This document shows positions 16,568 to 30,120 of a stretch of DNA of 32,000 nucleotides, in pieces; positions within the stretch are counted from its first letter, which is position 1; every line of letters begins with the position of its first letter. A program made the position numbers and the translations under genes. A model generated the notes under the pieces. It had not been told where the DNA came from and searched no databases. It saw only the letters and a list, made by a program, of their open reading frames with translations. This stretch comes from Gallionellales bacterium GWA2_54_124 (lineage in GTDB: Bacteria > Pseudomonadota > Gammaproteobacteria > Burkholderiales > Gallionellaceae): assembly GCA_001801025.1 (NCBI GenBank), contig MGWO01000007.1, positions 1,217,576 to 1,249,575 on the forward strand, given 5' to 3'.

Positions 16568-19500
16568 ATGCTACAAAACATCATCGTCTGGTCGGCTCGC
16601 AACCGATTTTTAGTGCTGCTGGCGACAGGATTCATTGTGCTGGCGGGTGTTTATGCGATGTACAAGACGCCGCTGGATGCCTTGCCCGATTTATCCGATG
16701 TACAGGTCATTGTTTATACTGAATATTCAGGTCAGGCGCCGCAGGTGGTCGAGGATCAGGTGACCTATCCGCTGACCACGGCGATGCTGGCGGTGCCCAA
16801 ATCCCGTGTGGTGAGGGGCTTCTCCTTCTTTGGCGCTTCCTTTGTGTATGTGATTTTCGAGGACGGTACCGACATCTACTGGGCCAGATCCCGCGTACTG
16901 GAGTCGCTGGCCAGCATTGCCGGACGAATGCCGGCCGGTGTCGCGCCGCAACTGGGGCCGGATGCGACAGGGGTGGGCTGGGTGTACCAGTATGCGGTGC
17001 TCAGTGAAAAACACAATCTCGCTCAGTTGCGCACCATGCAGGACTGGTATTTACGCTATCAGTTGACCAAGGCGCATGGCGTCTCGGAAGTCGCCTCGAT
17101 AGGCGGTTTTGTGCAGCAGTATCAGGTAAGCGTGGATCCGGTCAAACTGCGCGCCTACGGCATTGCGCTCAAGACCATATCGCAGGTTATCCGGGATTCA
17201 AATCGCGATGTCGGCGGTCGCGTGGTGGAGATGGGCGAGACCGAATACATGGTCAGAGGGCGCGGCTATCTGCGCGGCAAAACGGATATCGAGACGCTGG
17301 TGGTGAAAGCGGATCGTGGCACACCGGTGCTGCTGCGCGATATCGCGCGCGTCGAACTCGGGCCCGACGAGCGGCGCGGCCTGACTGAACTTGATGGCGA
17401 AGGCGAAGTCGTGGCGGGGATTGCGATGGCGCGGTTTGGCGAAAATGCGCTGGAGGTCATTGAAAACCTCAAGCATAAGCTCACTGAAGTCTCGGCAGGG
17501 CTGCCCGAGGGCGTATCAATCCGCGCTGTGTACGATCGCTCAGAACTGATCAAGCGTGCAATCGACACCCTCAAACACACGCTGCTCGAAGAAGGCCTGA
17601 TCGTGGCGCTGGTCTGTATGGTGTTTTTGCTGCATGTCAGAAGCGCACTGGTGGCGATTTTAATGCTGCCGGCCGGTGTGCTGATCGCGTTTATCGCCAT
17701 GCATGCGCTGGGGATGAATTCAAACATCATGAGTTTAGGGGGAATCGCTATTGCAATCGGTGCGATGGTGGATGCGGCGATCGTGATGATCGAGAACGCA
17801 CATAAACACATTGAGCGATTAGGGGAGGGCGAGTCGCGTAGTGATGCGATTATTGCCGCCTGCCGCGAGGTTGGCCCGTCGCTATTTTTCTCCTTGCTGA
17901 TTATCACGGTGTCATTTTTGCCGGTATTCACGCTCGAATCCCAAGAAGGGCGACTGTTTTCACCGCTTGCCTATACCAAAACGTTTTCTATGGCGGGCGC
18001 GGCGTTGCTGTCGGTGACGCTGGTGCCGGTGCTGATGCTGCTGTTTATTCGCGGGCCGATTCTGCCTGAGCAGAAAAATCCGCTCAATCGCTGGATGATC
18101 AGGTTCTACCGTCCGCTGATTGCTGCCGTACTGTCGAAGCAGAAAACCACCGTTGCGATCGCGCTGCTGGTGTTGGCTCTGTCCGTCTATCCTGCGATGC
18201 GATTGGGCAGCGAGTTTATGCCGACGTTAAATGAAGGCTCATTGCTGTATATGCCAGCCTCGTTGCCGGGTATGTCGGTCACGAAGGCGGCCGAGTTGCT
18301 GCAAACGCAGGACAAGATCATCAAGTCGTTCCCGGAAGTCGCTTCCGTGTTCGGCAAAGCGGGCAGGGCGCAGACTGCAACTGATCCTGCGCCGCTGGAA
18401 ATGTTCGAGACGGTGATCAATCTAAAGCCTCAGGATCAGTGGCGTCCCGGCATGACCACCGATAAACTGGTCGCCCAGATGGATCAGGCCCTGCAATTTC
18501 CCGGTGTAGCCAATTCCTGGACGATGCCGATCAAAGCCCGCATCGATATGCTCTCAACTGGAATCAGAACACCTATTGGAATCAAGGTGTTCGGCAAGAA
18601 TCTTGAGGAAATGGAGCAGCTTTCAAAACAGATCGAGAGCGTGGTGCGGCAGGTGCCGGGCACATCCAGCGCGTATGCGGAACGGTTAACGGGCGGCGCT
18701 TATCTTGATATTGAGCCCGATCGTATGGCGCTGGCGCGTTACGGCCTGACGGTGGGTGATGTGCAGGATGTGATTGCGACCGCCTTAGGCGGCGAGACGG
18801 TCACCACCACGGTGGAAGGACGGGAGCGCTTCGGTGTCAACGTGCGATATCCGAGGGATTTGCGCGGCACACCGGAGGAGATTGCCCGCGAAGTGTTAGT
18901 CACCACTCAGGACGGCGCGATGATTCCGTTGGGGCAGGTGGCCAGAGTTATTATTAATCGCGGCGCACCGTCGATCCGTACCGAAAACGCGCTGCTCTCG
19001 GCGTATATCTATGTGGACATCAGGGACCGCGACATCGGTTCATTTGTCGCCGATGCGCGCCGGGCGGTGAACCAACAGGTCAAATTTCCGCCGGGCTATT
19101 ACGCGACCTGGAGCGGTCAGTTTGAATATATGGAGCGTGCCTATGCGCGCATGAAGATCGTGATTCCGATCACTTTGCTGCTGATCTTCCTGTTGCTGTA
19201 TCTCAATTTCAAACGGGTGACGGATTCCCTGATCGTGATGCTGTCGGTGCCCTTTGCGCTGGTCGGCGGTTTATGGCTGCTGTGGCTGCTCGATTACAAC
19301 GTATCGGTCGCCGTTGCGGTCGGGTTTATCGCGCTCTCAGGCGTGGCGGCTGAAACGGGTGTTGTGATGCTGATCTATCTTGAGCAGTCATGGCAGGCGG
19401 TGCTGGCGCGCTGCAAGGATGAAGGGCGCGCGGCCACGGTGCAGGATTTACATGATGCCATCATGCACGGCGCAGTCGAGCGGGTACGCCCCAAGATGAT

Positions 19501-19672
19501 GACGGTGGTCGCGATCATGGCGGGCCTGTTGCCTATCCTGTGGAGCACGGGTACGGGGTCTGAAGTGATGCGACGCATCGCCGCCCCAATGGTGGGCGGC
19601 ATGATTTCGTCGGCTATTCTGACGCTGTTGGTCATCCCGGTGCTGTTTGCGCTGGTAAAAGGAAAAAAATGA
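16568..19672 (+). CDS. cusA: Heavy-metal efflux RND pump, CusA type (Cu/Ag)
   Basis: 1034 aa. The TM4 signature GGIAIAIGAMVDAAIVMIENAHK matches the monovalent-cation (CusA) class rather than the CzcA DFGIIVDGAV class. Confidence 0.92.
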   Translation: MLQNIIVWSARNRFLVLLATGFIVLAGVYAMYKTPLDALPDLSDVQVIVYTEYSGQAPQVVEDQVTYPLTTAMLAVPKSRVVRGFSFFGASFVYVIFEDGTDIYWARSRVLESLASIAGRMPAGVAPQLGPDATGVGWVYQYAVLSEKHNLAQLRTMQDWYLRYQLTKAHGVSEVASIGGFVQQYQVSVDPVKLRAYGIALKTISQVIRDSNRDVGGRVVEMGETEYMVRGRGYLRGKTDIETLVVKADRGTPVLLRDIARVELGPDERRGLTELDGEGEVVAGIAMARFGENALEVIENLKHKLTEVSAGLPEGVSIRAVYDRSELIKRAIDTLKHTLLEEGLIVALVCMVFLLHVRSALVAILMLPAGVLIAFIAMHALGMNSNIMSLGGIAIAIGAMVDAAIVMIENAHKHIERLGEGESRSDAIIAACREVGPSLFFSLLIITVSFLPVFTLESQEGRLFSPLAYTKTFSMAGAALLSVTLVPVLMLLFIRGPILPEQKNPLNRWMIRFYRPLIAAVLSKQKTTVAIALLVLALSVYPAMRLGSEFMPTLNEGSLLYMPASLPGMSVTKAAELLQTQDKIIKSFPEVASVFGKAGRAQTATDPAPLEMFETVINLKPQDQWRPGMTTDKLVAQMDQALQFPGVANSWTMPIKARIDMLSTGIRTPIGIKVFGKNLEEMEQLSKQIESVVRQVPGTSSAYAERLTGGAYLDIEPDRMALARYGLTVGDVQDVIATALGGETVTTTVEGRERFGVNVRYPRDLRGTPEEIAREVLVTTQDGAMIPLGQVARVIINRGAPSIRTENALLSAYIYVDIRDRDIGSFVADARRAVNQQVKFPPGYYATWSGQFEYMERAYARMKIVIPITLLLIFLLLYLNFKRVTDSLIVMLSVPFALVGGLWLLWLLDYNVSVAVAVGFIALSGVAAETGVVMLIYLEQSWQAVLARCKDEGRAATVQDLHDAIMHGAVERVRPKMMTVVAIMAGLLPILWSTGTGSEVMRRIAAPMVGGMISSAILTLLVIPVLFALVKGKK

Positions 19673-19726
19673 CAGGCAACGTGATTGAACTTGATGGGCA
19701 ATTGTTAAAATTAAAGCGGATTCGCA

Positions 19727-19822
19727 TTAATACCAACGTATGCAATCACCGGCGGTTTGGGGTCTGGAAAATCGCTCGTTTCTATCGGCCGCATTCAAGA
19801 TTATTTGAAACATGGTAGTCGT
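19727..19822 (+). pseudogene. zot / pI assembly ATPase, N-terminal fragment (Walker A only)
   Basis: In-frame translation reads LIPTYAITGGLGSGKSLVSIGRIQDYLKHGSR, the P-loop N-terminus typical of Zot-like proteins. There is no ATG, and homology stops abruptly at the terminator hairpin at 19824. Confidence 0.65.
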
Positions 19823-21969: not shown

Positions 21970-22226
21970 ATGATATTTCATCCATACCCAGTTTGGTCTG
22001 TTGTAATCCGTAATCATTTTTGGACTCTGCGTTATATTCGCGGATTCAATGAGTCGCGGAGACGTCAGCAATATTGGCTAATCGAGAAAGAAAAAAACGC
22101 CTGTATGAAACAGGCGTTGATAGTGAAGTGGTGCGGTTGTTATGCCGAGATATGGCAATTCCTCGGAATCCTCATGCTGAAAAGCGCTTTTGGGATGAAT
22201 TTCATAAGCCCGCGAATTCTCCATAA
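21970..22226 (+). pseudogene. attP-adjacent 85-aa basic protein homolog, frameshifted in an A7 tract
   Basis: The first 42 codons parallel 29460-29717 with many synonymous differences. After A7 (22091-22097, versus A8 in the other copy) homology continues in the +1 frame (KRLYETGVDSEVVRLLCR...KRFWDEFHKPANSP, stop at 22224-22226). Confidence 0.7.
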
Positions 22227-22608
22227 TTTTCTTCTTATATTTGACATAATATACATTTGAATTCAACGAGTTACGATCTAACCCTATCAATTCACTTGCA
22301 TTTGCTGGGGCAGGTGTCATGTTTAAAATGACAGCACCTAATATCACCGACGCGGCATGACTCACAAAAGGGAGCAATACCGCTCTTCTTTCCTGATTTT
22401 TTTCTGTTATTAATTCGCTTGCTGAAATTACTTCCATTTCATTTATTGTTAATAGTTGAGCAATTTGACAACAAACTGCGATTGGTAAACCTGCGCGTCC
22501 GTTTTTTGCATTTGTAATTTGTTGAGAAGATACGCCAAGATAATCGGCTAATTCCTTTTGGCTCCCGACTTCCATTATTGCTAAGACAATGTAATTTTTC
22601 ATATTCAT
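22078..22608 (-). CDS. HTH (Cro/CI-type) phage repressor-like protein; ORF reads through the dif-like site
   Basis: MNMKNYIVLAIMEVGSQKELADYLGVSSQQITNAKNGRAGLP is an HTH. A hydrophobic segment follows (ASVILGAVILNM). AGGAG RBS before the ATG at 22608. There is no stop before the attachment site, and the 28-mer itself encodes NSNVYYVKY. Confidence 0.65.
   Translation of the reverse strand: MNMKNYIVLAIMEVGSQKELADYLGVSSQQITNAKNGRAGLPIAVCCQIAQLLTINEMEVISASELITEKNQERRAVLLPFVSHAASVILGAVILNMTPAPANASELIGLDRNSLNSNVYYVKYKKKIMENSRAYEIHPKSAFQHEDSEELPYLGITTAPLHYQRLFHTGVFFFLD
22096..22118 (-). terminator. Minus-strand intrinsic terminator embedded in the 85-aa ORF (copy 0)
   Basis: AACGCCTG / CAGGCGTT stem. 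On the minus strand it is followed by the T7 run. It lies downstream of the repressor gene, across the dif-like site. Confidence 0.55.
22239..22266 (-). other. dif-like XerC/D site, hybrid (XerD arm and spacer intact, XerC arm degenerate)
   Basis: Plus strand: ATTTGACATAA TATACA TTTGAATTCAA. The reverse complement of the first 17 nt is TGTATA-TTATGTCAAAT, against E. coli dif TGTATA-TTATGTTAAAT. The last 11 nt do not resemble a XerC arm. Confidence 0.7.
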
Positions 22609-22620
22609 TATTTTCTCCTG

Positions 22621-22688
22621 TTGACATACAAATTTATTTGATTTATTGTGTCGATCAAATAAGTTTGTATGCAATTAAATTTGTATGC
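22621..22688 (+). promoter_or_regulatory. Rightward promoter candidate plus three operator-like 9-mers
   Basis: TTGACA (22621-22626), 17 nt, TATTGT (22644-22649). TTTGTATGC occurs at 22664-22672 and 22680-22688, and its near-complement ACATACAAA at 22624-22632. Confidence 0.5.
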
Positions 22689-22737
22689 GCTTAGATTGCA
22701 CCAAACAGCGCAACAAGTCAATCAACAGGGGGCAGGA

Positions 22738-22968
22738 ATGCAAAACGGACAACCAGCACAGCAAAGGCTTATAGGCGTTTCTGGCATTATTCCCGTGCAT
22801 CTTGAAAACCGTCTACACAATTTAGCAGCTTCAAACCGCCGCGATTTCGACTTAGATTACTCGGACACGTTCGCTCAGGTGATCGCGCTAGGTGTCGATG
22901 CATTACAGTCCAGACGTTCGTCGGCCTATGTCCGGTCAACTGAAATTATGAAAAAGGTTTGCGGCTAA
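22738..22968 (+). CDS. Hypothetical small protein upstream of rep
   Basis: 76 aa from the ATG at 22738 (GGGGGCAGGA RBS). TAATG overlap with the in-frame rep ATG at 22968. No recognisable motif. Confidence 0.4.
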   Translation: MQNGQPAQQRLIGVSGIIPVHLENRLHNLAASNRRDFDLDYSDTFAQVIALGVDALQSRRSSAYVRSTEIMKKVCG

Positions 22969-24092
22969 TGACTCCTGCAAACCAACAGGCGCTTGAGGCT
23001 TTACAGGCTTACGACCTCGCGCATCCTCCCGTTGAGTCTGTCTCAACACAACCAGAATTTTTCAAGATAGTGCTGACTGATGATTCCAAATGTCCGGTCA
23101 AGCTAATACCGAATCGCATGTCATCTGGGGATGGTGTTGCATTCCTCGATTGGGTCAATTTCACTATCCACGAATCAACCATGATTGACTCTGCTTTAGA
23201 GGGGCAGTGTTTTTCTGACGAAGATTTCATGGTTTCGTTTTCTCGCATCCTCTTTAAGATTTTCGGCTTTGGTCTTACTTCTCGCATGAGTACCGGATCT
23301 GATTTCTACCAAAAAAGATGGGTGCTAGGGGAGGGCTTCGGCTTTGTCTGTTTCGGCGGCAATAACTCAACCGTCTTGACCAAGCTTTCTGGCACTGGCT
23401 GTGCGGCTGCTCTGCACGGTTGGGAATCTCGGTTAAGAAATTTCCTAGAGTATCAAGCTGTCCAGCCTCGTATCACGCGCCTCGATCTGGCGCACGATGT
23501 CTATGATGGTCAATCCTACAATGTGGATAGAGCTTCCAGTGATTACGATGCTGGCTTATTTTCTTCCGGCGGTCGCTCTCCGAATATCGAACTGCGCGGC
23601 AACTGGCGCACGCCAAACGGCAAAGGCCGCACGGTCTATGTCGGCGCAAGATCAAACGGTAAATATCTCCGCGTCTATGAGAAGGGCCGTCAGCTGGGCG
23701 ATGCTACATCTGAGTGGGTTCGTATCGAGGTTGAAATTAAATCCATTGATCGCGTTATCCCTTTTGATGCTCTGGTTAAGGCTGGCGAATATCTCGCGGC
23801 AACTTATCCGGCGCTCAATTTTCTGTCCGTTAAGCAATGTCGCATTGAAACAATTTCCCGTACTGCTAAGGCTGGCTATGCGCACACGGTTGCATGGTTA
23901 AAACATCAGTGTGGATCATCTTTGGCTCTGGTCGCTGAGATAGAGGGCGGGGCGGATCAGGCTCTTGATCTTATAAAACGCCCGATAGTTTTAAAGGGTG
24001 CTTTGCTCGTACCGTCTTGTGATACGCATCTAGTTCCTATTCATGATCGTGAGCGATTGGAGCATCCCGATATGGTTTTACCTGAATTCTGA
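22959..24092 (+). CDS. Rolling-circle replication initiation protein (Rep_trans / RstA-like)
   Basis: ITRLDLAHDV...GRTVYVGARSNGKYLRVYEKG...EWVRIEVEIK is the pattern of replication-initiation-factor (RstA-type) proteins of filamentous phages. The start may be the TTG at 22959 or the ATG at 22968. Confidence 0.75.
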   Translation: MRLMTPANQQALEALQAYDLAHPPVESVSTQPEFFKIVLTDDSKCPVKLIPNRMSSGDGVAFLDWVNFTIHESTMIDSALEGQCFSDEDFMVSFSRILFKIFGFGLTSRMSTGSDFYQKRWVLGEGFGFVCFGGNNSTVLTKLSGTGCAAALHGWESRLRNFLEYQAVQPRITRLDLAHDVYDGQSYNVDRASSDYDAGLFSSGGRSPNIELRGNWRTPNGKGRTVYVGARSNGKYLRVYEKGRQLGDATSEWVRIEVEIKSIDRVIPFDALVKAGEYLAATYPALNFLSVKQCRIETISRTAKAGYAHTVAWLKHQCGSSLALVAEIEGGADQALDLIKRPIVLKGALLVPSCDTHLVPIHDRERLEHPDMVLPEF

Positions 24093-24163
24093 TTTTTGAT
24101 TACCTCCTGTTTCCGGCGCTCAGGGTCAAAGGTATAGCCGTAGTAATTTATAAGGAAATTGTC

Positions 24164-24457
24164 ATGAAATTTAAAGCCTCTGTTGTTGTTACTGGTCTGA
24201 AGCGTTCTAAAGGCGATATGGAAGGTACGCCTTATGACTTTACGTCTGTTTTTATTCAGGTTGATTTAGACGAATCTACAAAAAACGCTCGCGGTCAGGC
24301 TGTTGAACCGTACAAGCTTGGCACGTCAGACAATTACGCGACTTTCGACGGTTTCCAGTTGCCGTTTAATGCGATGGCTGAGTTTGAAATTACAACTACG
24401 GGCAAAGTCGCAAAGCAAAAATTGCTTTCCCTTGTTCCTGTTCCTGCTCGTCCGTAA
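24164..24457 (+). CDS. Candidate ssDNA-binding protein (gpV analogue)
   Basis: 97 aa, immediately after rep, with an AAGGAA RBS. The assignment rests on size and position only. Confidence 0.35.
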   Translation: MKFKASVVVTGLKRSKGDMEGTPYDFTSVFIQVDLDESTKNARGQAVEPYKLGTSDNYATFDGFQLPFNAMAEFEITTTGKVAKQKLLSLVPVPARP

Positions 24458-24681
24458 TGCAATCCCCTGCGCTCCGTCAAGTTTGGGTTATCCAGTGCAA
24501 AAGCACGGGGGCTTTCTTGACGCCTGAACAAGGCTTTGCTGCAAGCCTAAAGAGGGCAGGGCGTTTGTTCAATCCTGATGAAGTCAGAGAGACGGCTTTT
24601 GATGCGCTCGATGACGATTATGAGGTTCATACCTTCTACGAGGTTGTGCAAATGCTTGAGGGTTTTCGTCATTATGAGTAG
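24457..24681 (+). CDS. Hypothetical protein
   Basis: 74 aa with a TAATG overlap with the upstream ORF. No motif recognised. Confidence 0.4.
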   Translation: MQSPALRQVWVIQCKSTGAFLTPEQGFAASLKRAGRLFNPDEVRETAFDALDDDYEVHTFYEVVQMLEGFRHYE

Positions 24682-24692
24682 CTTTTTCAATG

Positions 24693-24718
24693 CCCCCCCC
24701 CCCACATAAGATGGGGGG
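24693..24718. repeat. C11 homopolymer / G6 hairpin in intergenic region
   Basis: C x11 at 24693-24703, a 9-nt spacer, then G x6 at 24713-24718. Confidence 0.8.
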
Positions 24719-24778
24719 AAAGTATCTTTGTAAGTATGTATGTAGGGTATTTTCCCAAAATTTTATAGGGTTGGATTC

Positions 24779-24967
24779 TTGATGTTTAGTGAACATTCCA
24801 TCACTGCCGACTGGTTCATTCAGCAAGTCATATTAGCCCTGATTCATAGTGCTGTTTATGGCATGGCTTACCACTTTTTCAAAGGGCTGTCCCTCGGTGG
24901 TGCGGTGTTGGCTTGCTTGTGTCTGCTGGTCGTAGCGTGGCTCGCATTTAAACTTTTTAGGCGTTAG
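24779..24967 (+). CDS. Small two-TM membrane protein
   Basis: 62 aa with two hydrophobic helices. Its position is typical of minor virion or morphogenesis proteins. Confidence 0.4.
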   Translation: MMFSEHSITADWFIQQVILALIHSAVYGMAYHFFKGLSLGGAVLACLCLLVVAWLAFKLFRR

Positions 24968-24976
24968 GTCAATTAA

Positions 24977-25288
24977 ATGGCTTTTACTTGCGTCCCAGTC
25001 GTTGCTCAGTGGGGTACTGTCTCCTACATCAACACGAATCAAGCCGCATGCGCTGCTAATCAGTGGGCTGTGTTCACCTCTGCTGATTTGACTGCCTATA
25101 ACGCATCTTTAACCGCTGGCACGGCTTCAACCCCTGCCGTTACACAAACAACGTCATTCTTTCCCTCGATGACGATTGCGGAGGCTCTGCCCATATTTGC
25201 AGCTATCTCGCTGCTGTGGGGGCTGGCTTTCACCTTGAGGGCTATTGGTAATTTTCTAAAACCTAAATCTGGAGATTCAAATGATTAA
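24977..25288 (+). CDS. Small C-terminally anchored protein (possible minor coat protein)
   Basis: 103 aa with a C-terminal TM (LPIFAAISLLWGLAFTL). Its first 120 nt recur with one synonymous change at 31881-32000. Confidence 0.5.
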   Translation: MAFTCVPVVAQWGTVSYINTNQAACAANQWAVFTSADLTAYNASLTAGTASTPAVTQTTSFFPSMTIAEALPIFAAISLLWGLAFTLRAIGNFLKPKSGDSND

Positions 25289-25499
25289 AAAACTGAAAAA
25301 CGCGCTGATTCGTAAACAATTCAAGATCGCTGCTGGCGCTGGTGCGCTTCTGGCTGCTGGCTCGTCACAAGCTGCCATCGATGTAACTGGCGTTACAGCT
25401 GCCCTCACTGATGGTTTGACCGCTGTAGGTACGATCGGCGGTGCTGTTCTGCTCATTTGGGGGACAAAGAAGGTTTACGCCCTCATTTCCGGTCGTTAA
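25281..25499 (+). CDS. Major coat protein (gpVIII-like)
   Basis: 72 aa. Signal peptide ending SSQA|A, then a mature roughly 40-aa peptide with an acidic N-terminus, a hydrophobic core and a basic C-terminus (WGTKKVYALISGR). GGAG RBS and a strong terminator after it. Confidence 0.75.
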   Translation: MIKKLKNALIRKQFKIAAGAGALLAAGSSQAAIDVTGVTAALTDGLTAVGTIGGAVLLIWGTKKVYALISGR

Positions 25500-25518
25500 T
25501 CTTCAGTAAACAAATAAT

Positions 25519-25555
25519 TCCCCTTGTTGCGCGTAGCCTCAAGGGGATTTTTTTT
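25519..25555 (+). terminator. Rho-independent terminator after coat gene
   Basis: TCCCCTTG / CAAGGGGA stem, 13-nt loop, T8 run. Confidence 0.8.
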
Positions 25556-25608
25556 AAGGGGTATAAATTGGAAGGTTATCTTTTGTTACTCGGGCTTATC
25601 GGTGCTTT

Positions 25609-26886
25609 ATGGATTCTCTTCGCTCCCTAGTTTTACTTCTCGCCGTGTTTTTTTCCGGCCATGCTTTTGCTGGTGTTGATTACTCTCAACCCCAGCAGTC
25701 ATTCTCTGCACAAAGCTTGTCAGGTTCTTTTTCTAGCGCTGGGCTTATGCTTTCCGCTTTTATGTCTCATTTTCCGCAATATACGTCCTGTACTTTTGAT
25801 GGCGTCAACTCGCATCCAATTCTCTGCGATGGCACTGGCGGCGGCGGACCTTATACTCAGCAACCTATGGGTGTCGGTTATGCTTCTGCCCCTCTTTGCC
25901 CTTTATCATCTACGTTTAATTCTGTTTCTGGTCAGTGCGAAAAGCCAAATTCATGTACGGCTGGCCAGACTATTTTTGCTGGTCGTTGGTCGTCTATGCC
26001 CTCAAACGGCTGTAATTCAGGGTGTAATGCAGTTTGGACAGGCTCAAACGTTGCGGGAAGTTCCTCTAATTTTTCCGGTTCTGCTGTCCTCGATGGGTCG
26101 TCATGTTCTGGTGGATCGGCTGTGCCTCCTCCTGATTTGCAGGATATAACGGCTTGTCCATCTGGCCCGACTGGCCCGACTTCCTGCGCTGCTGGCGAAT
26201 CACTCGTTATTCAGGGTTGTACAGCATCTTGCTCCCCTAATACTCAGTCTGGTACTTCCGGATCAACGACTGGCGGCACTACTGGCGGCACTACTGGCGG
26301 TACAACTGGTGGCACAACTGGTGGCACAACTGGTGGTACAACTGGCGGTACAACAGGCGGTACAACTACCACAAACAACACGACAAACAATGTTGATATG
26401 TCGCCCGTCACGGCTGCGGTCGATGCTGCAACGGCTGCAATCAAGGCAGGAACGCTTGTCCAGTACTGCATCGATCATCCTGATGCGAATATCTGTCAGA
26501 CCAATGTCATTAATGCCGCTTGCGGTTCTTTTAACTGCTCTGGTGACGCTATTCAGTGCGCGATCGCAAAAGATCAATTTGACCTTCATTGCAAGCTTGC
26601 TAATGAGCAAAACGCCAATCTTGATATAGGCAAAAGGATGATTGATGGAACGGACACTAGCGTCAGAAATCCCGCTGATGTCGCTAACCGCTCCACTTTC
26701 TCAATTGGTTCTTTGGATATGAGTTCCCCCATTGCGGCCAAGTGCCCGGACGATGTTGTTTTTACTGTCATGGGTAAGTCGTCAACTTTGCCGTTGTCTC
26801 TCTGGTGTCCTTATCTCGCTCTTGTCGGCAATGTTTTCATGGCCTTGTCTCTTGTCGCTGCTGCTAAAATTATCGGAGGTGTTTAA
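25609..26886 (+). CDS. Adsorption / minor coat protein (gpIII-like)
   Basis: 425 aa. Signal peptide, Cys-rich N-terminal domains, (TTGG)x8 flexible linker, C-terminal membrane anchor. Confidence 0.7.
   Translation: MDSLRSLVLLLAVFFSGHAFAGVDYSQPQQSFSAQSLSGSFSSAGLMLSAFMSHFPQYTSCTFDGVNSHPILCDGTGGGGPYTQQPMGVGYASAPLCPLSSTFNSVSGQCEKPNSCTAGQTIFAGRWSSMPSNGCNSGCNAVWTGSNVAGSSSNFSGSAVLDGSSCSGGSAVPPPDLQDITACPSGPTGPTSCAAGESLVIQGCTASCSPNTQSGTSGSTTGGTTGGTTGGTTGGTTGGTTGGTTGGTTGGTTTTNNTTNNVDMSPVTAAVDAATAAIKAGTLVQYCIDHPDANICQTNVINAACGSFNCSGDAIQCAIAKDQFDLHCKLANEQNANLDIGKRMIDGTDTSVRNPADVANRSTFSIGSLDMSSPIAAKCPDDVVFTVMGKSSTLPLSLWCPYLALVGNVFMALSLVAAAKIIGGV
26266..26361 (+). repeat. 12-bp tandem repeat x8 encoding (TTGG)n linker
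   Basis: ACN ACN GGN GGN is repeated 8 times with synonymous third-position variation. Confidence 0.9.
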
Positions 26887-27191
26887 TGCCCGCAATTGGT
26901 GTTGTTATTGGCTGGCTTGTTGGTGCAATTGGCCTTACGCTTGCAAATTGGGTCGGTCGTGTTTTGGTTGCTCTCGGTATTTCTTACATCACGTTCAGCG
27001 GTGTTGATCTACTGTTTTCGAGCCTAAAAACTGAAATTTGGTCACTGCTCGGCGGTGCTGGTCAGCTTTCCGGTGTCATCGGTCTTTCCCGCATTGGCGA
27101 ATCGGTCAACATCGTTTTTTCCGCCTTGATCGCTAAAATGTCCCTTTCTGGCATGACTGGCGGTAAGCTCACTAAACAGGTCATCAAGTAA
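26886..27191 (+). CDS. gpVI-like minor coat protein (DUF2523-like)
   Basis: 101 aa and hydrophobic. TAATG overlaps on both sides. Located immediately upstream of zot, as in many inoviruses. Confidence 0.6.
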   Translation: MPAIGVVIGWLVGAIGLTLANWVGRVLVALGISYITFSGVDLLFSSLKTEIWSLLGGAGQLSGVIGLSRIGESVNIVFSALIAKMSLSGMTGGKLTKQVIK

Positions 27192-28180
27192 TGGCTATCG
27201 ACCTAACGCCGCTTACTGTTGTCACAGGTTTGCCCGGATCGGGCAAGACGCTTTTTACTCTTACTGGTGTTGATGAGTACTCCAAGCGTGAAGGCTTCAA
27301 GGTCTACTATCACGGCATTCCTCAATTGACGCTTGATTGGGAAATGCTCGAAGAGCCTAAGCAGTGGCACAACCTGCCGAACAAGTCGATTATTGTCATC
27401 GACGAATCACAAAGTACGTTCCCGCCCCGATCATCGTCGGCCGCCATGCCTGAACATGTCGCAGCTGCCAATACCCTGCGCCACAAGTCGCACATGCTGG
27501 TTTTGATTACGCAGCATCCGATGCTGATCGACGGGTCGATCCGCAAGCTTTGCACAAAGCATTATCACGTTGAGCGTTTTTACGGCTTTCAAAAATCAAC
27601 GATTCATGAGTTTTTGAAGATCCGCGACAACTGCGACAAATCCACTAAAGGCTCTATCTCTACGCATTTTGTTTATCCAAAAGAGGTTTTTAACTGGTAC
27701 AAAAGTGCGGATATGCACACGATCAAGAGGCGCATCCCCGCGCGTCTTATTATGATTATTATTCTGCCTTTGATCGCTGTTGCGCTGGTTTATTTATTCA
27801 TCAAAACTGTGGGAGGTTTGACTACTGGAGATAAGATTAAAGGGGGGGCTGCTTCACCCACCACCGGAGTTCAAGCGGTTTCAGGTGTCATTGCCGTTCC
27901 TGTTTGGACTGACACATTAAAGCCTCGGTTGTCCGGTTTTCCGCACACAGCCCCGCGTTATGATGAAGTGACTAAGCCGACTGTTGCGCCTTATCCCGCC
28001 GCGTGTGTTTCGTCTGAATCTCGTTGTGTCTGTCACACGCAACAGGGAACTAAAATGCTTGTCGATGATGCTCTTTGTCGGAGCATTGCCAGCAACGGAT
28101 TTTTTAATGATTTTCTTGAGAAAAAAACGGATTCATCGCCTGTTTCTCAAGTCCCTCGGCCTTCGTTATCGTCGCTATGA
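27191..28180 (+). CDS. Zot-like / gpI assembly ATPase
   Basis: Walker A VVTGLPGSGKT, Walker B IIVIDESQ, a mid-protein TM segment (LIMIIILPLIAVALVYLF) and a periplasmic C-terminal domain. Confidence 0.85.
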   Translation: MAIDLTPLTVVTGLPGSGKTLFTLTGVDEYSKREGFKVYYHGIPQLTLDWEMLEEPKQWHNLPNKSIIVIDESQSTFPPRSSSAAMPEHVAAANTLRHKSHMLVLITQHPMLIDGSIRKLCTKHYHVERFYGFQKSTIHEFLKIRDNCDKSTKGSISTHFVYPKEVFNWYKSADMHTIKRRIPARLIMIIILPLIAVALVYLFIKTVGGLTTGDKIKGGAASPTTGVQAVSGVIAVPVWTDTLKPRLSGFPHTAPRYDEVTKPTVAPYPAACVSSESRCVCHTQQGTKMLVDDALCRSIASNGFFNDFLEKKTDSSPVSQVPRPSLSSL

Positions 28181-28308
28181 TTAAAAAACTTTTCTGGATT
28201 CTGATGGTCGTTTTGATGTCTGGCTGCATGTCTACGCCTGAATCCCGCCATGCTGAAACTGCTGCATGGTGGTCTTGTACTAATCTCCATCGTGTTGGAG
28301 ATTGCTGA
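28177..28308 (+). CDS. Small lipoprotein overlapping zot stop (ATGA)
   Basis: 43 aa: MIKKLFWILMVVLMSGC|MSTPESRHAETAAWWSCTNLHRVGDC. Lipobox LMSGC. Homologous in position and Cys pattern to 20947-21066. Confidence 0.55.
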   Translation: MIKKLFWILMVVLMSGCMSTPESRHAETAAWWSCTNLHRVGDC

Positions 28309-28410
28309 ATATCGAGGCGAAGCGCACGCGGCTAACGAAGTGCCGCGAAGCTCGCCCGATATTTATTTTCTTCGATCGCAGCTGTATGCCGCGTATTTAC
28401 TGGGTTTTAT

Positions 28411-28442
28411 AAAAAGGGAAGGGGGCTTGCGCCCCCTTTTTT
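28411..28442. terminator. Conserved bidirectional terminator hairpin, copy C
   Basis: AAGGGGGC-ttgc-GCCCCCTT flanked by A- and T-runs. Confidence 0.75.
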
Positions 28443-28686
28443 AATGCATTTTCATCAGTATTCCGATTAAAACGGAGAATTGAGCTAGTGCTAGGCCGAT
28501 AATCCATTTAAGCATATCGAATTTCATATCGGTCAGCTGAATTTGTAGATCTTGTTTTGTTACGAGCTCTCTGTCGTCTGATGCGCTTTGATAGGCATTT
28601 GCAATTCCTTTTGCTCTCTCTTCGTCAAAACCGCTTTTTTTAAGTATTTCAACGAATTTCAGGGTGTCGAATGTCACTGTGCTCAT
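28441..28686 (-). CDS. DUF1640/CCDC90-like small membrane-anchored protein (cargo copy C)
   Basis: 81 aa: MSTVTFDTLKFVEILKKSGFDEERAKGIANAY...LVTKQDLQ...TM helix. The N-terminal 12 aa are identical to copy A and the rest has diverged. Confidence 0.6.
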   Translation of the reverse strand: MSTVTFDTLKFVEILKKSGFDEERAKGIANAYQSASDDRELVTKQDLQIQLTDMKFDMLKWIIGLALAQFSVLIGILMKMH

Positions 28687-28743
28687 GATGTTCCTTTCGG
28701 TTGATGGTTAAGACTAAATCATTTTCACTGCATTAGCAATTTA
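28687..28743. repeat. Cargo leader/promoter, copy C (truncated R)
   Basis: Matches 20113-20169 with 2 mismatches by eye. Homology ends right after the -35 TTGCTA, at the stop codon of the next ORF. Confidence 0.85.
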
Positions 28744-29145
28744 CGCGAATAACTGCCTGTTTTTTTTGGGTGTCCAGTCAGCCCATTTTAGAATATCTGC
28801 CACAATTACCAGCTCGAGCACGTCTTGAATGGGTGCAACTTGCTTGGCCGCTGGCATTTTGAAATTCTTTACCCATTTTTTCAGCCATTCGGCTGAATTT
28901 TCCTTAATCTCGGCCATGATTTGCAAGGCCACGCCAACAGCATCAACGAAGTCCAGCCACGTTTGACGGGCTTTAAATTCCGCGTTTTTCATGTATCTGC
29001 AATTGTTGATTTTCATGGTTTTGGTATTCCCAGCATCTTCCAGAATCTTGAGCCTGCTTTTGATTTCCTCGCGGTGCAGGTTTCTGCCGCTTGCTTCTTT
29101 GCTTCTCCCGTCATCCCGTCGCCTTGCGATATCAGCTCGTAGCAA
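28741..29145 (-). CDS. Orphan hypothetical protein occupying the position of the distal part of repeat R
   Basis: 134-aa ORF with a TTG start; internal ATGs would give 91 or 83 aa. No recognisable motif and no clear RBS. Confidence 0.35.
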   Translation of the reverse strand: MLRADIARRRDDGRSKEASGRNLHREEIKSRLKILEDAGNTKTMKINNCRYMKNAEFKARQTWLDFVDAVGVALQIMAEIKENSAEWLKKWVKNFKMPAAKQVAPIQDVLELVIVADILKWADWTPKKNRQLFA

Positions 29146-29459
29146 TTTTAATAATCAACGATTTTGGCAAGATCGCAGTTTTTGCGGCTGTATCGCAAAA
29201 AACGATTGCCGCAAAACCCGAAGGGCGCACAGTCTCACCGTGCGTTGTTGATTATTGAAATTGTCGGAGGGAAGATTCGCGTTTTAGGCGGCGGGGTGAT
29301 GGGAAAGCATTTGCGGAGTGCTGCACGGTCGAGTCAAAAAATAGAGCACCCGAAGGGTGACGACCTAACAGACAGTTTCACCCGTCTGTTAGCCTTTTAA
29401 TGCAGTTGGCATTGCGCCGTTGATTTTGATTTATTGCGTAGCGGTGGTATTCTGAAAAA

Positions 29460-29717
29460 ATGATATTCCATCAATACCCCAACTGGTCAGGCACGATTTT
29501 GAGTCATTACTGGTATCTGCGTTACTTCCGCTCGTTTCAGGAGGCTAGACGGCGCAAACAATACCGGCTGATCGCGAAGGAAAAAAAACGCCTGCATGAA
29601 ACAGGCGTTGATAGTGAGTTGGTGCGGTTGCTATGCCGTCATGCGGCAAATCCTCGGAATCAACATGCTGCAAAACGCTTTTGGGATGCTTTGCACAAGC
29701 CTGCGGAATCTTCTTAA
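29460..29717 (+). CDS. Conserved attP-adjacent 85-aa basic protein
   Basis: Compared with 21970-22226, many differences are synonymous or conservative (F, P, S, I, Y, R, L, K codons), which indicates purifying selection. Arg/Lys-rich. No family recognised. Confidence 0.6.
   Translation: MIFHQYPNWSGTILSHYWYLRYFRSFQEARRRKQYRLIAKEKKRLHETGVDSELVRLLCRHAANPRNQHAAKRFWDALHKPAESS
29587..29609 (-). terminator. Minus-strand intrinsic terminator embedded in the 85-aa ORF
   Basis: AACGCCTG / CAGGCGTT stem followed on the minus strand by T8 (29581-29588). Confidence 0.55.
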
Positions 29718-29728
29718 TTTACTAATCA

Positions 29729-29756
29729 ATTTGACATAATATACATTATGCGTATT
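29729..29756 (-). other. dif-like XerC/D recombination site, near consensus
   Basis: The reverse complement reads AATACGCATAA TGTATA TTATGTCAAAT, against E. coli dif GGTGCGCATAA TGTATA TTATGTTAAAT. The spacer is identical, the XerD arm matches 10/11, and the XerC arm shares CGCATAA. Confidence 0.8.
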
Positions 29757-30120
29757 TAAAACGCCTAAAAACGCCTCCCTGCGTTTTTACGAGGTCTTGC
29801 CCTGTCCATAAGGTAGCGATGCAAAGCAAGGCCATTATGAGGCCTCTCAGGGGCTGCTTTACACGCAAGCGAAAACCCGCCCAGAACTTTTGCTCTGTTT
29901 CGTTCTTCGCGCTCAATTCCTCAAACTCCGCTATCAACGCCAATGGATCCAACCCAAGACATTCCGCGATCTTCATCAGCGCATAGGCATTCGGTACACG
30001 TTTGCATTTCATGTATTCGCTGATTCTTTGTGTCGGAATCTTCAGTTCTTTTGCTAGTGCGTAATCGCTGGAAATCTTTAGCTTGATTTTGCAGTCTTTC
30101 AAAAGTTCGCTGGTTCTCAT
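29746..30120 (-). CDS. HTH phage repressor-like protein with hydrophobic C-terminal segment
   Basis: MRTSELLKDCKIKLKISSDYALAKELKIPTQRISEYMKCKRVP is an HTH. GGAGAG RBS before the ATG at 30120. The TAA stop is the first 3 nt of the XerC arm. The C-terminus contains LRGLIMALLCIATLW. Confidence 0.65.
   Translation of the reverse strand: MRTSELLKDCKIKLKISSDYALAKELKIPTQRISEYMKCKRVPNAYALMKIAECLGLDPLALIAEFEELSAKNETEQKFWAGFRLRVKQPLRGLIMALLCIATLWTGQDLVKTQGGVFRRFKYA

Follow-up and report, generated by a model that had tools for sequence, protein, structure and literature searches.

The 32,000-nucleotide stretch of DNA analyzed here (the window) is from Gallionellales bacterium GWA2_54_124 (MGWO01000007.1) and makes up the end of contig C7 in the 2.9-Mb genome of a betaproteobacterial host. 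It contains a tandem array of filamentous-phage DNA, in which a degraded first copy comes before a middle prophage that is complete (7.5 kb, 22256-29745) and a third of which the window holds only the beginning. This work concerns the repressor gene of the middle prophage, whose open reading frame (ORF) has no stop codon before the attachment site at the prophage end and continues through it, such that the C-terminal end of the predicted protein is encoded by the DNA on the other side of the junction (Table 1). The ORFs of the middle prophage match the Pfam families Rep_trans, Inovirus Coat_B, DUF2523, Zot and HTH_3, which identifies it as an inovirus, and a DNA search with the whole prophage against known phages returned no match. 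Pfam detects no recombinase or integrase among these ORFs, several small ones of which match nothing. With dif or dif-hybrid sites on either side of it at the chromosomal dif locus, and integrase-less, the middle prophage is an integrative mobile element that exploits Xer (IMEX) of the filamentous-phage type, and its integration is presumably catalyzed by the XerC and XerD of the host.

The repressor matches HTH_3 (residues 16-55) and YdaS_toxin in Pfam and phrog_638, a transcriptional regulator, in PHROG. Its helix-turn-helix (HTH) domain and its divergent position beside the rep operon suggest that it represses phage genes and confers immunity, and a promoter-like site is located next to the gene at 22621-22649. 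The hydrophobic segment that follows the HTH domain is conserved in the family and reaches a Kyte-Doolittle 19-residue maximum of 2.23 at residues 77-95. From residue 88 to the C-terminus the AlphaFold confidence measure (predicted local distance difference test, pLDDT) is below 50 and the tail is predicted to be disordered, while the invariant columns of the family alignment end at A104, about 10 codons before the attachment site. The first-pass annotation of this DNA had described a repressor ORF that lacks a stop before the site, reads through the 28-mer and continues for about 50 codons antisense through the 85-aa gene of the neighboring phage copy, and all of this is borne out: the site is read as L115-N-S-N-V-Y-Y-V-K123, then Y124, and 53 further codons (Y124-D176) are antisense to the frameshifted copy of that gene (the 96-aa ORF in Table 1). 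That the ORF ends just past an embedded terminator is likewise correct, since the hairpin stem (22118-22096) has 9 pairs and the tail TTTTTCTTTC, and the TAG lies 16-18 nt past the stem end at 22096. Transcripts terminated at 22096-22118 would lack a stop codon, a non-stop situation that is peculiar to the junction in the window.

Table 1. Features of the window discussed in the text, with positions counted from its first letter.
Feature	Position	Strand	Remarks
RND (resistance-nodulation-division) efflux pump gene	16568-19672		Precedes the filamentous-phage DNA in the window
First prophage's copy of p85	21970-22260	+	Frameshifted at an A-run; 96-aa ORF running into site A
Middle-prophage repressor ORF	22608-22078	-	176 aa; ATG at 22608, TAG at 22080-22078
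HTH DNA-binding domain, residues 1-68	22405-22608	-	Predicted by AlphaFold, pLDDT >90; five helices
Long helix, residues 72-97	22318-22395	-	In the AlphaFold model; holds hydrophobic, membrane-span-like segment VLLPFVSHAASVILGAVIL
Site A (junction inside repressor ORF)	22239-22266	-	XerC arm 22256-22266, central TGTATA 22250-22255, XerD arm 22239-22249
Junction-dependent tail, 53 aa (Y124-D176)	22081-22238	-	Supplied by degraded neighbor prophage; pLDDT <50
Terminator-like hairpin and T-tract	22086-22118	-	Within the tail coding region, upstream of the stop codon
p85 (conserved 85-aa gene)	29460-29717	+	In the circular form, converges with the repressor across attP
Terminator hairpin in p85	29587-29609	-	Embedded in KKRLHETGV codons
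Circular-form 32-aa basic tail and TAG (29633-29631)	29631-29728	-	Reconstructed
Site B	29729-29756	-	XerD arm and central region (29729-45) from middle phage; XerC arm (29746-56) from third phage
Third-prophage repressor	29746-30120	-	124 aa, ends KYA and stop; phrog_638

The predicted product depends on which phage owns which arm of the two attachment sites. Reverse-complemented, site A is TTGAATTCAAA TGTATA TTATGTCAAAT, where the XerC arm TTGAATTCAAA is degenerate and the phage's own, and site B is AATACGCATAATGTATATTATGTCAAAT, the exact genus-wide chromosomal dif, which is single-copy (one match at ≤3 mismatches in 41 of 61 genomes). The two sites have in common a 17-nt sequence made up of the XerD arm and central region, of which there are only two copies genome-wide, and a search of the assembly for a circular-junction contig found none. 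The arrangement of the arms assumed in the earlier reconstruction of attP, the phage attachment site, is confirmed by two independent metagenomic prophages with both ends on one contig (L059 and L060; related loci are designated by such numbers). At their far end, in the direction of the repressor gene, a canonical XerC arm is joined to the central region and XerD arm of the phage, and at the near end the degenerate phage XerC arm beside the repressor is joined to the central region and XerD arm of the target. The site-A-like arrangement is present in L018, L059 and L060, and the attachment (att) context of L015 is that of L026 (same-genus genome G236). The right end of the array, on contig C4 (455-482), also agrees with the reconstruction: the junction AATACGCATAA-TGCGTA-GTTATGAAAAC is followed there by chromosomal flank, and in the attP of the third phage it is therefore the XerC arm that is canonical and the central region and XerD arm that are odd, the reverse of the middle phage. 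The two phage types in the array thus have opposite "good arm / bad arm" attP designs. The phage-side "XerC arms" (22256-22266 in the window, and those in L003, L006, L015, L018, L025, L027, L059 and L060) resemble one another, differ from dif and are partly palindromic (TTGAATTCAAA, TTGATTTCAAA, TTTGAATGCAA, TTGATTCACAC, TGATTACAAAC), and they might bind something other than XerC.

Joining 29745 to 22256 restores attP and gives a repressor of 155 aa that ends ...VYYVK LISKLRRFRRLVQSIPKAFCSMLIPRICRMTA and stop, which fits the prior claim that the reconstituted site would produce a different, shorter tail, here of 32 aa. On this reconstruction partner DNA supplies the whole sequence from the central region on, stop codon and terminator included. 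The protein predicted for the integrated state is therefore not that of the circular (excised) state, as had been proposed, while the folded conserved part (residues 1 to ~104) is predicted to be identical in both. The stop codon of the circular form (29633-29631) lies 21 nt before the terminator (29609-29587) in the phage's own p85. In the window the integrated product is the longer of the two (176 vs 155 aa), with the neighbor's pseudogene being read in another frame, whereas in the reconstructed pairs of L059 and L060 a circular form of 154-155 aa becomes an integrated form of 123 aa. Integrated tails add 0 aa in L018, L060 and L055, +10 in L003, +16 in L057, +40 in L006, +43 in L007 and +53 in the window, and tandem arrays such as this one appear to create a third product state. 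The third prophage has the opposite arrangement, in that the TAA of its repressor (29748-29746) is the triplet at the inner edge of the canonical XerC arm, where the first-pass annotation had placed it. This repressor is closed by its own TAA before the crossover, hence its C-terminus is independent of integration. BLASTP finds no similarity between the two repressors in the window, though both match phrog_638.

The DNA into which the circular form is read holds p85, which has 36-87% identity to sequences in six other loci (tblastn), matches phrog_27692 and occurs in seven further metagenome loci, mostly at integrated right ends; searches of genome-contig and viral-contig collections with p85 returned nothing. 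p85 is a genuine gene. The copy in the first prophage is recovered by tblastn as two segments in different frames (21970-22095 and 22092-22220). A relationship of p85 to XafT/DUF3653 was considered and rejected, there being no Pfam match even at E = 10. The repressor and p85 converge in five circular-form contexts, with an overlap of 62-87 nt, and in these the repressor stop is always found 21-37 nt before a strong minus-strand terminator that lies in conserved p85 codons. This terminator (29587-29609 and 22096-22118 in the window; 6620-6650 in L068, the Ralstonia phage RSS0) is built from the p85 codons E-K-K-R-L-H-E-T-G-V and recurs in L059, L060, L052 and RSS0, such that one strand of the hairpin would be coding and the opposite strand would act as terminator. 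In related genomes the host flank beside dif also holds a p85 3′-end remnant of about 55 nt (L018:7951-8015; also in L019 and L020), between the site and the RND pump gene. It is 87% identical to 29681-29733 of the window and supplies the TAG that ends the L018 repressor at 123 aa, which indicates that the "naive" dif flank there is old phage DNA.

Reading of the attachment site by the repressor ORF is seen throughout the family. All 14 close homologues, mostly of 119-123 aa, have the hydrophobic segment and read into the dif core, and none ends upstream of that segment, so the extension survives the comparison with homologues proposed in the first-pass annotation. At the DNA level a stop before the att core was found in 0 of 17 non-redundant dif-type relatives, which is more read-through than expected by chance, and their stop codons are located 3 to 58 codons past the crossover. 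The core is read in all three frames (..VYYVK, ..MYIMSN and ..CILCQ). A profile search of 1.84 billion representatives gave 605 cluster representatives of the family, of which 161 were examined using regular expressions, such that the following counts are approximate: a translated dif core is present near the C-terminus in 110 (frame a 38, frame b 57, frame c 15) and a tRNA signature in 5. More distant relatives from Propionivibrio and Rhodocyclaceae (L009:4350-4425, L013:4356-4431 and L012:4253-4329) adjoin tRNA-Phe or tRNA-Arg genes, and their repressor ORFs end antisense within the tRNA (..GIEPRTRGFSVRCSTN and stop); the lack of an own stop before att therefore survives a change of integration system. 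In one IMG/VR contig (L053:10001-11097) the repressor ORF remains open for >365 codons and is fused in frame to a host ThiF/TcdA-like dehydratase gene.

The tails themselves are variable. In 32 of the 110 representatives (~30%) only 0-4 residues follow the signature, and in some of these the ORF stops inside the XerD arm; in some hosts the arm itself contains the stop (ATG TAA or TGT TAA), so that the product is independent of state. Tails of the circular form, either reconstructed (window, L059, L060) or directly seen (L050, L052, L064), have 22-33 aa and a net charge of +5 to +10. Those of the window and L059 are in the antisense frame aligned with the p85 codons, those of L060, L064, L050 and L052 in another. 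The tails of the window and L059 are alike (..KLRRxRRLVQSxPKA..CRMTA and stop) because of their antisense overlap with the conserved p85, and a conserved circular-tail peptide was rejected as a family feature, given the other p85 frame used in the remaining four. A degradation tag of the ssrA type was sought at the ends of the circular tails, and no consistent -LAA/-VAA-like ending was found among them, the endings being -RMTA, -DYAD, -LRFG, -GCAG and -TAPC.

This layout has a precedent in RSS0 (Inoviridae, Restivirus), in which the 3′ end of ORF13 holds attP (dif) and a new stop codon arises on integration, shortening the product from 156 to 130 aa (PMC3816273). A functional difference of ORF13 before and after integration was proposed, as a hypothesis, by Yamada in 2013 (PMC3816273; Askora and Yamada, 2015, PMC4471427). 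A tblastn search with the window repressor against phages gave no match, and the homology with ORF13 becomes visible only at the profile level, where hhalign of the family against ORF13 gives a probability of 96% and E = 3e-9 over the full length (residues 1-143 vs 1-153). Both phages are inoviruses that lack an integrase, use XerCD to integrate at dif and carry a reverse-oriented HTH regulator with attP at its 3′ end, and the parts follow in the same order, namely HTH, hydrophobic segment (..FVAPSPAEAAP.. in ORF13), att, basic tail, terminator and convergent p85-like ORF. They differ in that ORF13 is only ~21% identical to the window repressor and reads att in another frame (..RFILCK, followed by the basic tail IARRLRERLQQALRAVQTSPKTAPC and stop), while the window phage is in a tandem array, where its product is of 176 aa when integrated vs 155 aa when circular and its stop lies beyond the terminator. 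Judged by its sequence, the window repressor module belongs to the RSS0 ORF13/attP type, the layout of which is already published. RSS0 also has an unannotated 113-aa ORF (L068:6431-6772, + strand) that is convergent with ORF13 and contains the p85 motif ..LYWHIRTLRR..YYRKIRTKKKRLLE.., and the published "626-nt ORF13/attP element" probably also includes this p85-like gene.

Three other groups of phages have related arrangements. In the XerCD/dif-integrating Xanthomonas inoviruses XacF1 and Cf1c, attP lies within the putative regulator gene ORF12, which is split by integration (Ahmad et al., 2014, PMC4076744). Here too a putative HTH regulator has the dif core within its coding region, but the core is well inside the 153-aa ORF rather than in its last codons and the host is a gammaproteobacterium; the likeness drawn here is one of layout. 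In the mycobacteriophages BPs, Brujita and Charlie, integration-dependent immunity involves a repressor gene that contains attP (Villanueva et al., 2015, PMC4557955), and it is experimentally established that the BPs repressor has 136 aa in its viral form, which carries an ssrA-like tag, vs 103 aa in the prophage (PMC4557955). The viral form is ~33 residues longer, which is comparable to the 154-155 vs 123 aa of the reconstructed pairs, but these tailed actinobacteriophages encode a tyrosine integrase of their own and have a bacterial attachment site (attB) in a tRNA gene, whereas the window phage is integrase-less, has dif as its attB and shows no consistent tag-like ending. All of the literature found with attP "within the repressor gene" concerns actinobacteriophages. 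For Vibrio inoviruses, PMC12715192 describes a module made up of repressor, attP and small regulator, with the repressor at the prophage end, a dif-like attP, a small regulator gene across attP and an accessory-gene region between zot and the small regulator, as in the window. In that module attP lies between two genes, and PMC12715192 mentions no ORF that crosses it. No similarity was found between p85 and the Vibrio XafT in a comparison by Pfam only.

The left end of the array in the window is less regular. A fragment of the Zot N-terminus with a Walker A motif (19669-19822) begins at the stop codon of the RND pump gene, the rest of zot resumes at ~20330, beyond an inserted cassette, and no dif half-site is visible at 19669-19822 beside that stop codon. 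This end of the array looks rearranged or deleted.

These results can be combined into a model in which a filamentous phage of the RSS0 type, which integrates at dif by exploiting XerCD, has its lysogeny module at this locus. The repressor gene, encoding an N-terminal HTH domain and one hydrophobic helix, is the last of the prophage and has no stop of its own before attP, and its translation would pass the degenerate XerC arm of the phage, the central region and the XerD arm. Recombination would swap the sequence from the central region onward, and the last residues, the stop and the terminator would come from the partner. In the circular form translation would run for 32 codons antisense into the phage's own p85 and stop 21 nt before the embedded terminator, and in the tandem array it would enter the frameshifted p85 of the neighbor in another frame, add 53 residues and stop after the terminator. 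The tail itself is most likely dispensable, a result of placing attP in the 3′ end of the gene, because the invariant columns end at A104, pLDDT is <50 from residue 88, two frames of p85 are used and 32 of 110 representatives have short tails. We therefore favor, with a probability of roughly 0.6, the interpretation that the tail is a tolerated by-product of an attP packed into a compact genome, and we infer that it is neutral. The first-pass annotation had left open whether the extension is functional or merely tolerated. The evidence leans to the second, and the integration-state sensor that it had suggested finds no positive support, given an attachment site read in three frames, at least two frames used against the antisense gene, the predicted disorder and the tails of 0-4 residues in ~30% of the relatives with a dif signature.

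Several observations weigh against a neutral tail, none of them decisively. The layout is kept among relatives that are only ~40% identical to this protein and across a change of att type, and this could reflect selection. Tail lengths are bimodal, with either 0-4 aa or a broad peak at ~20-40 aa, and basic character is consistent among the longer ones, whose median net charge is +5, with 35 of 54 at +4 or above. Although the frame in which the site is read is not the same in the window phage and L059, their spacers differ in length by 1 nt, which brings both tails back into one frame. Finally, synonymous divergence in p85 is 12-20% in the overlap codons 57-85 (29629-29717) vs 28-29% in codons 1-56, a trend that would suit added constraint in the overlap, in a comparison of three related sequences in which the pooled Fisher test is not significant (p = 0.07).

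The first rival reading, on which these points bear, is that the layout is a functional integration-dependent switch, as in the hypothesis of Yamada for RSS0 ORF13 and by analogy with BPs. In the circular state the repressor would be longer, with a basic extension that alters stability, membrane insertion or target choice, and integration at a naive dif would provide a short tail and a stable form of the repressor for immunity. The placing of attP inside the repressor ORF across the family is consistent with this, and the change from 154-155 to 123 aa in L059 and L060 resembles those of RSS0 (156 to 130) and BPs (136 to 103). The circular tails are uniformly basic (+5 to +10) after a hydrophobic helix of predicted N-in/C-out topology, and such a charge should hinder translocation; the bimodal lengths and the weak dip in synonymous divergence across the p85 overlap can be read in the same way. 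The basic character, however, may simply follow from being antisense to Ser, Pro and Ala codons of p85, and a switch of this type would be difficult to reconcile with the absence of a conserved tail peptide when three att frames and two p85 frames are in use, or with endings that are not consistently of the ssrA-like -AA type (-MTA, -YAD, -RFG, -CAG, -APC). Moreover, the integrated forms are not always the shorter ones (+10, +16, +40, +43 and +53), some members stop inside the XerD arm and have a state-independent product, and the third-prophage repressor, of the same PHROG, closes its ORF before the crossover. We consider such a switch unlikely.

A second possibility is that the consequence of this arrangement is transcriptional and does not involve the protein. 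The repressor transcript of the circular form would cross attP and run antisense over the 3′ third of p85 to the embedded terminator, thereby damping p85, a candidate integration or regulatory factor at the position of XafT/P15 in the Vibrio modules, and integration would separate repressor and p85 and relieve the damping. In the array the transcript would end in the pseudogene of the neighbor before any stop codon, giving a non-stop mRNA subject to tagging by transfer-messenger RNA (tmRNA). The convergent overlap of 62-87 nt in five contexts, with the repressor stop 21-37 nt before the terminator, the same hairpin in RSS0, a stop in the window 16 nt past the stem end and the repressor-attP-small regulator module of the Vibrio inoviruses (PMC12715192) are all in keeping with such an effect. 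p85, however, has neither a Pfam match nor a demonstrated link to XafT, the non-stop situation is confined to the junction in the window, and this explanation is in our view decidedly improbable. It is very improbable that the extension is never made and the long ORF is an annotation artifact of transcription or translation ending before the site, since 0 of 17 relatives have a stop there and, although a terminator scan of the region gave 3 hits (vs 1.1 +/- 1.2 in shuffled sequences), the strong one is the downstream terminator and the two weak ones inside the ORF (22548-22534 and 22385-22372) are 5-bp stems with poor T-tails in the conserved coding part, such that no convincing terminator before the site was found.

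The layout is a trait of a large betaproteobacterial family (605 representatives, with a translated dif core at the C-terminus in about two thirds of the 161 examined) and not a curiosity of a single phage. Speculatively, and with the odds clearly against it, this family might be a Xer-based integration-dependent switch in which repressor dosage reports integration and array context. If this were true, the circular form of ~155 aa would have a strongly basic tail after the N-in/C-out helix that blocks membrane insertion or targets the protein for turnover, a stop from the host would replace it upon integration at dif and leave a short, tail-anchored form for immunity, and tandem arrays would change the product again through a stop beyond the terminator, a non-stop mRNA and tmRNA tagging. 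Whether integration at dif alters the repressor of a filamentous phage is a question that was raised for RSS0 in 2013, and the locus described here offers a non-pathogenic system of the Gallionella type and three defined forms (123, 155 and 176 aa) with which this idea can be tested. If the tail is neutral, as we favor, the locus would be an example of the extent of C-terminal variation that is tolerated in a compact genome.

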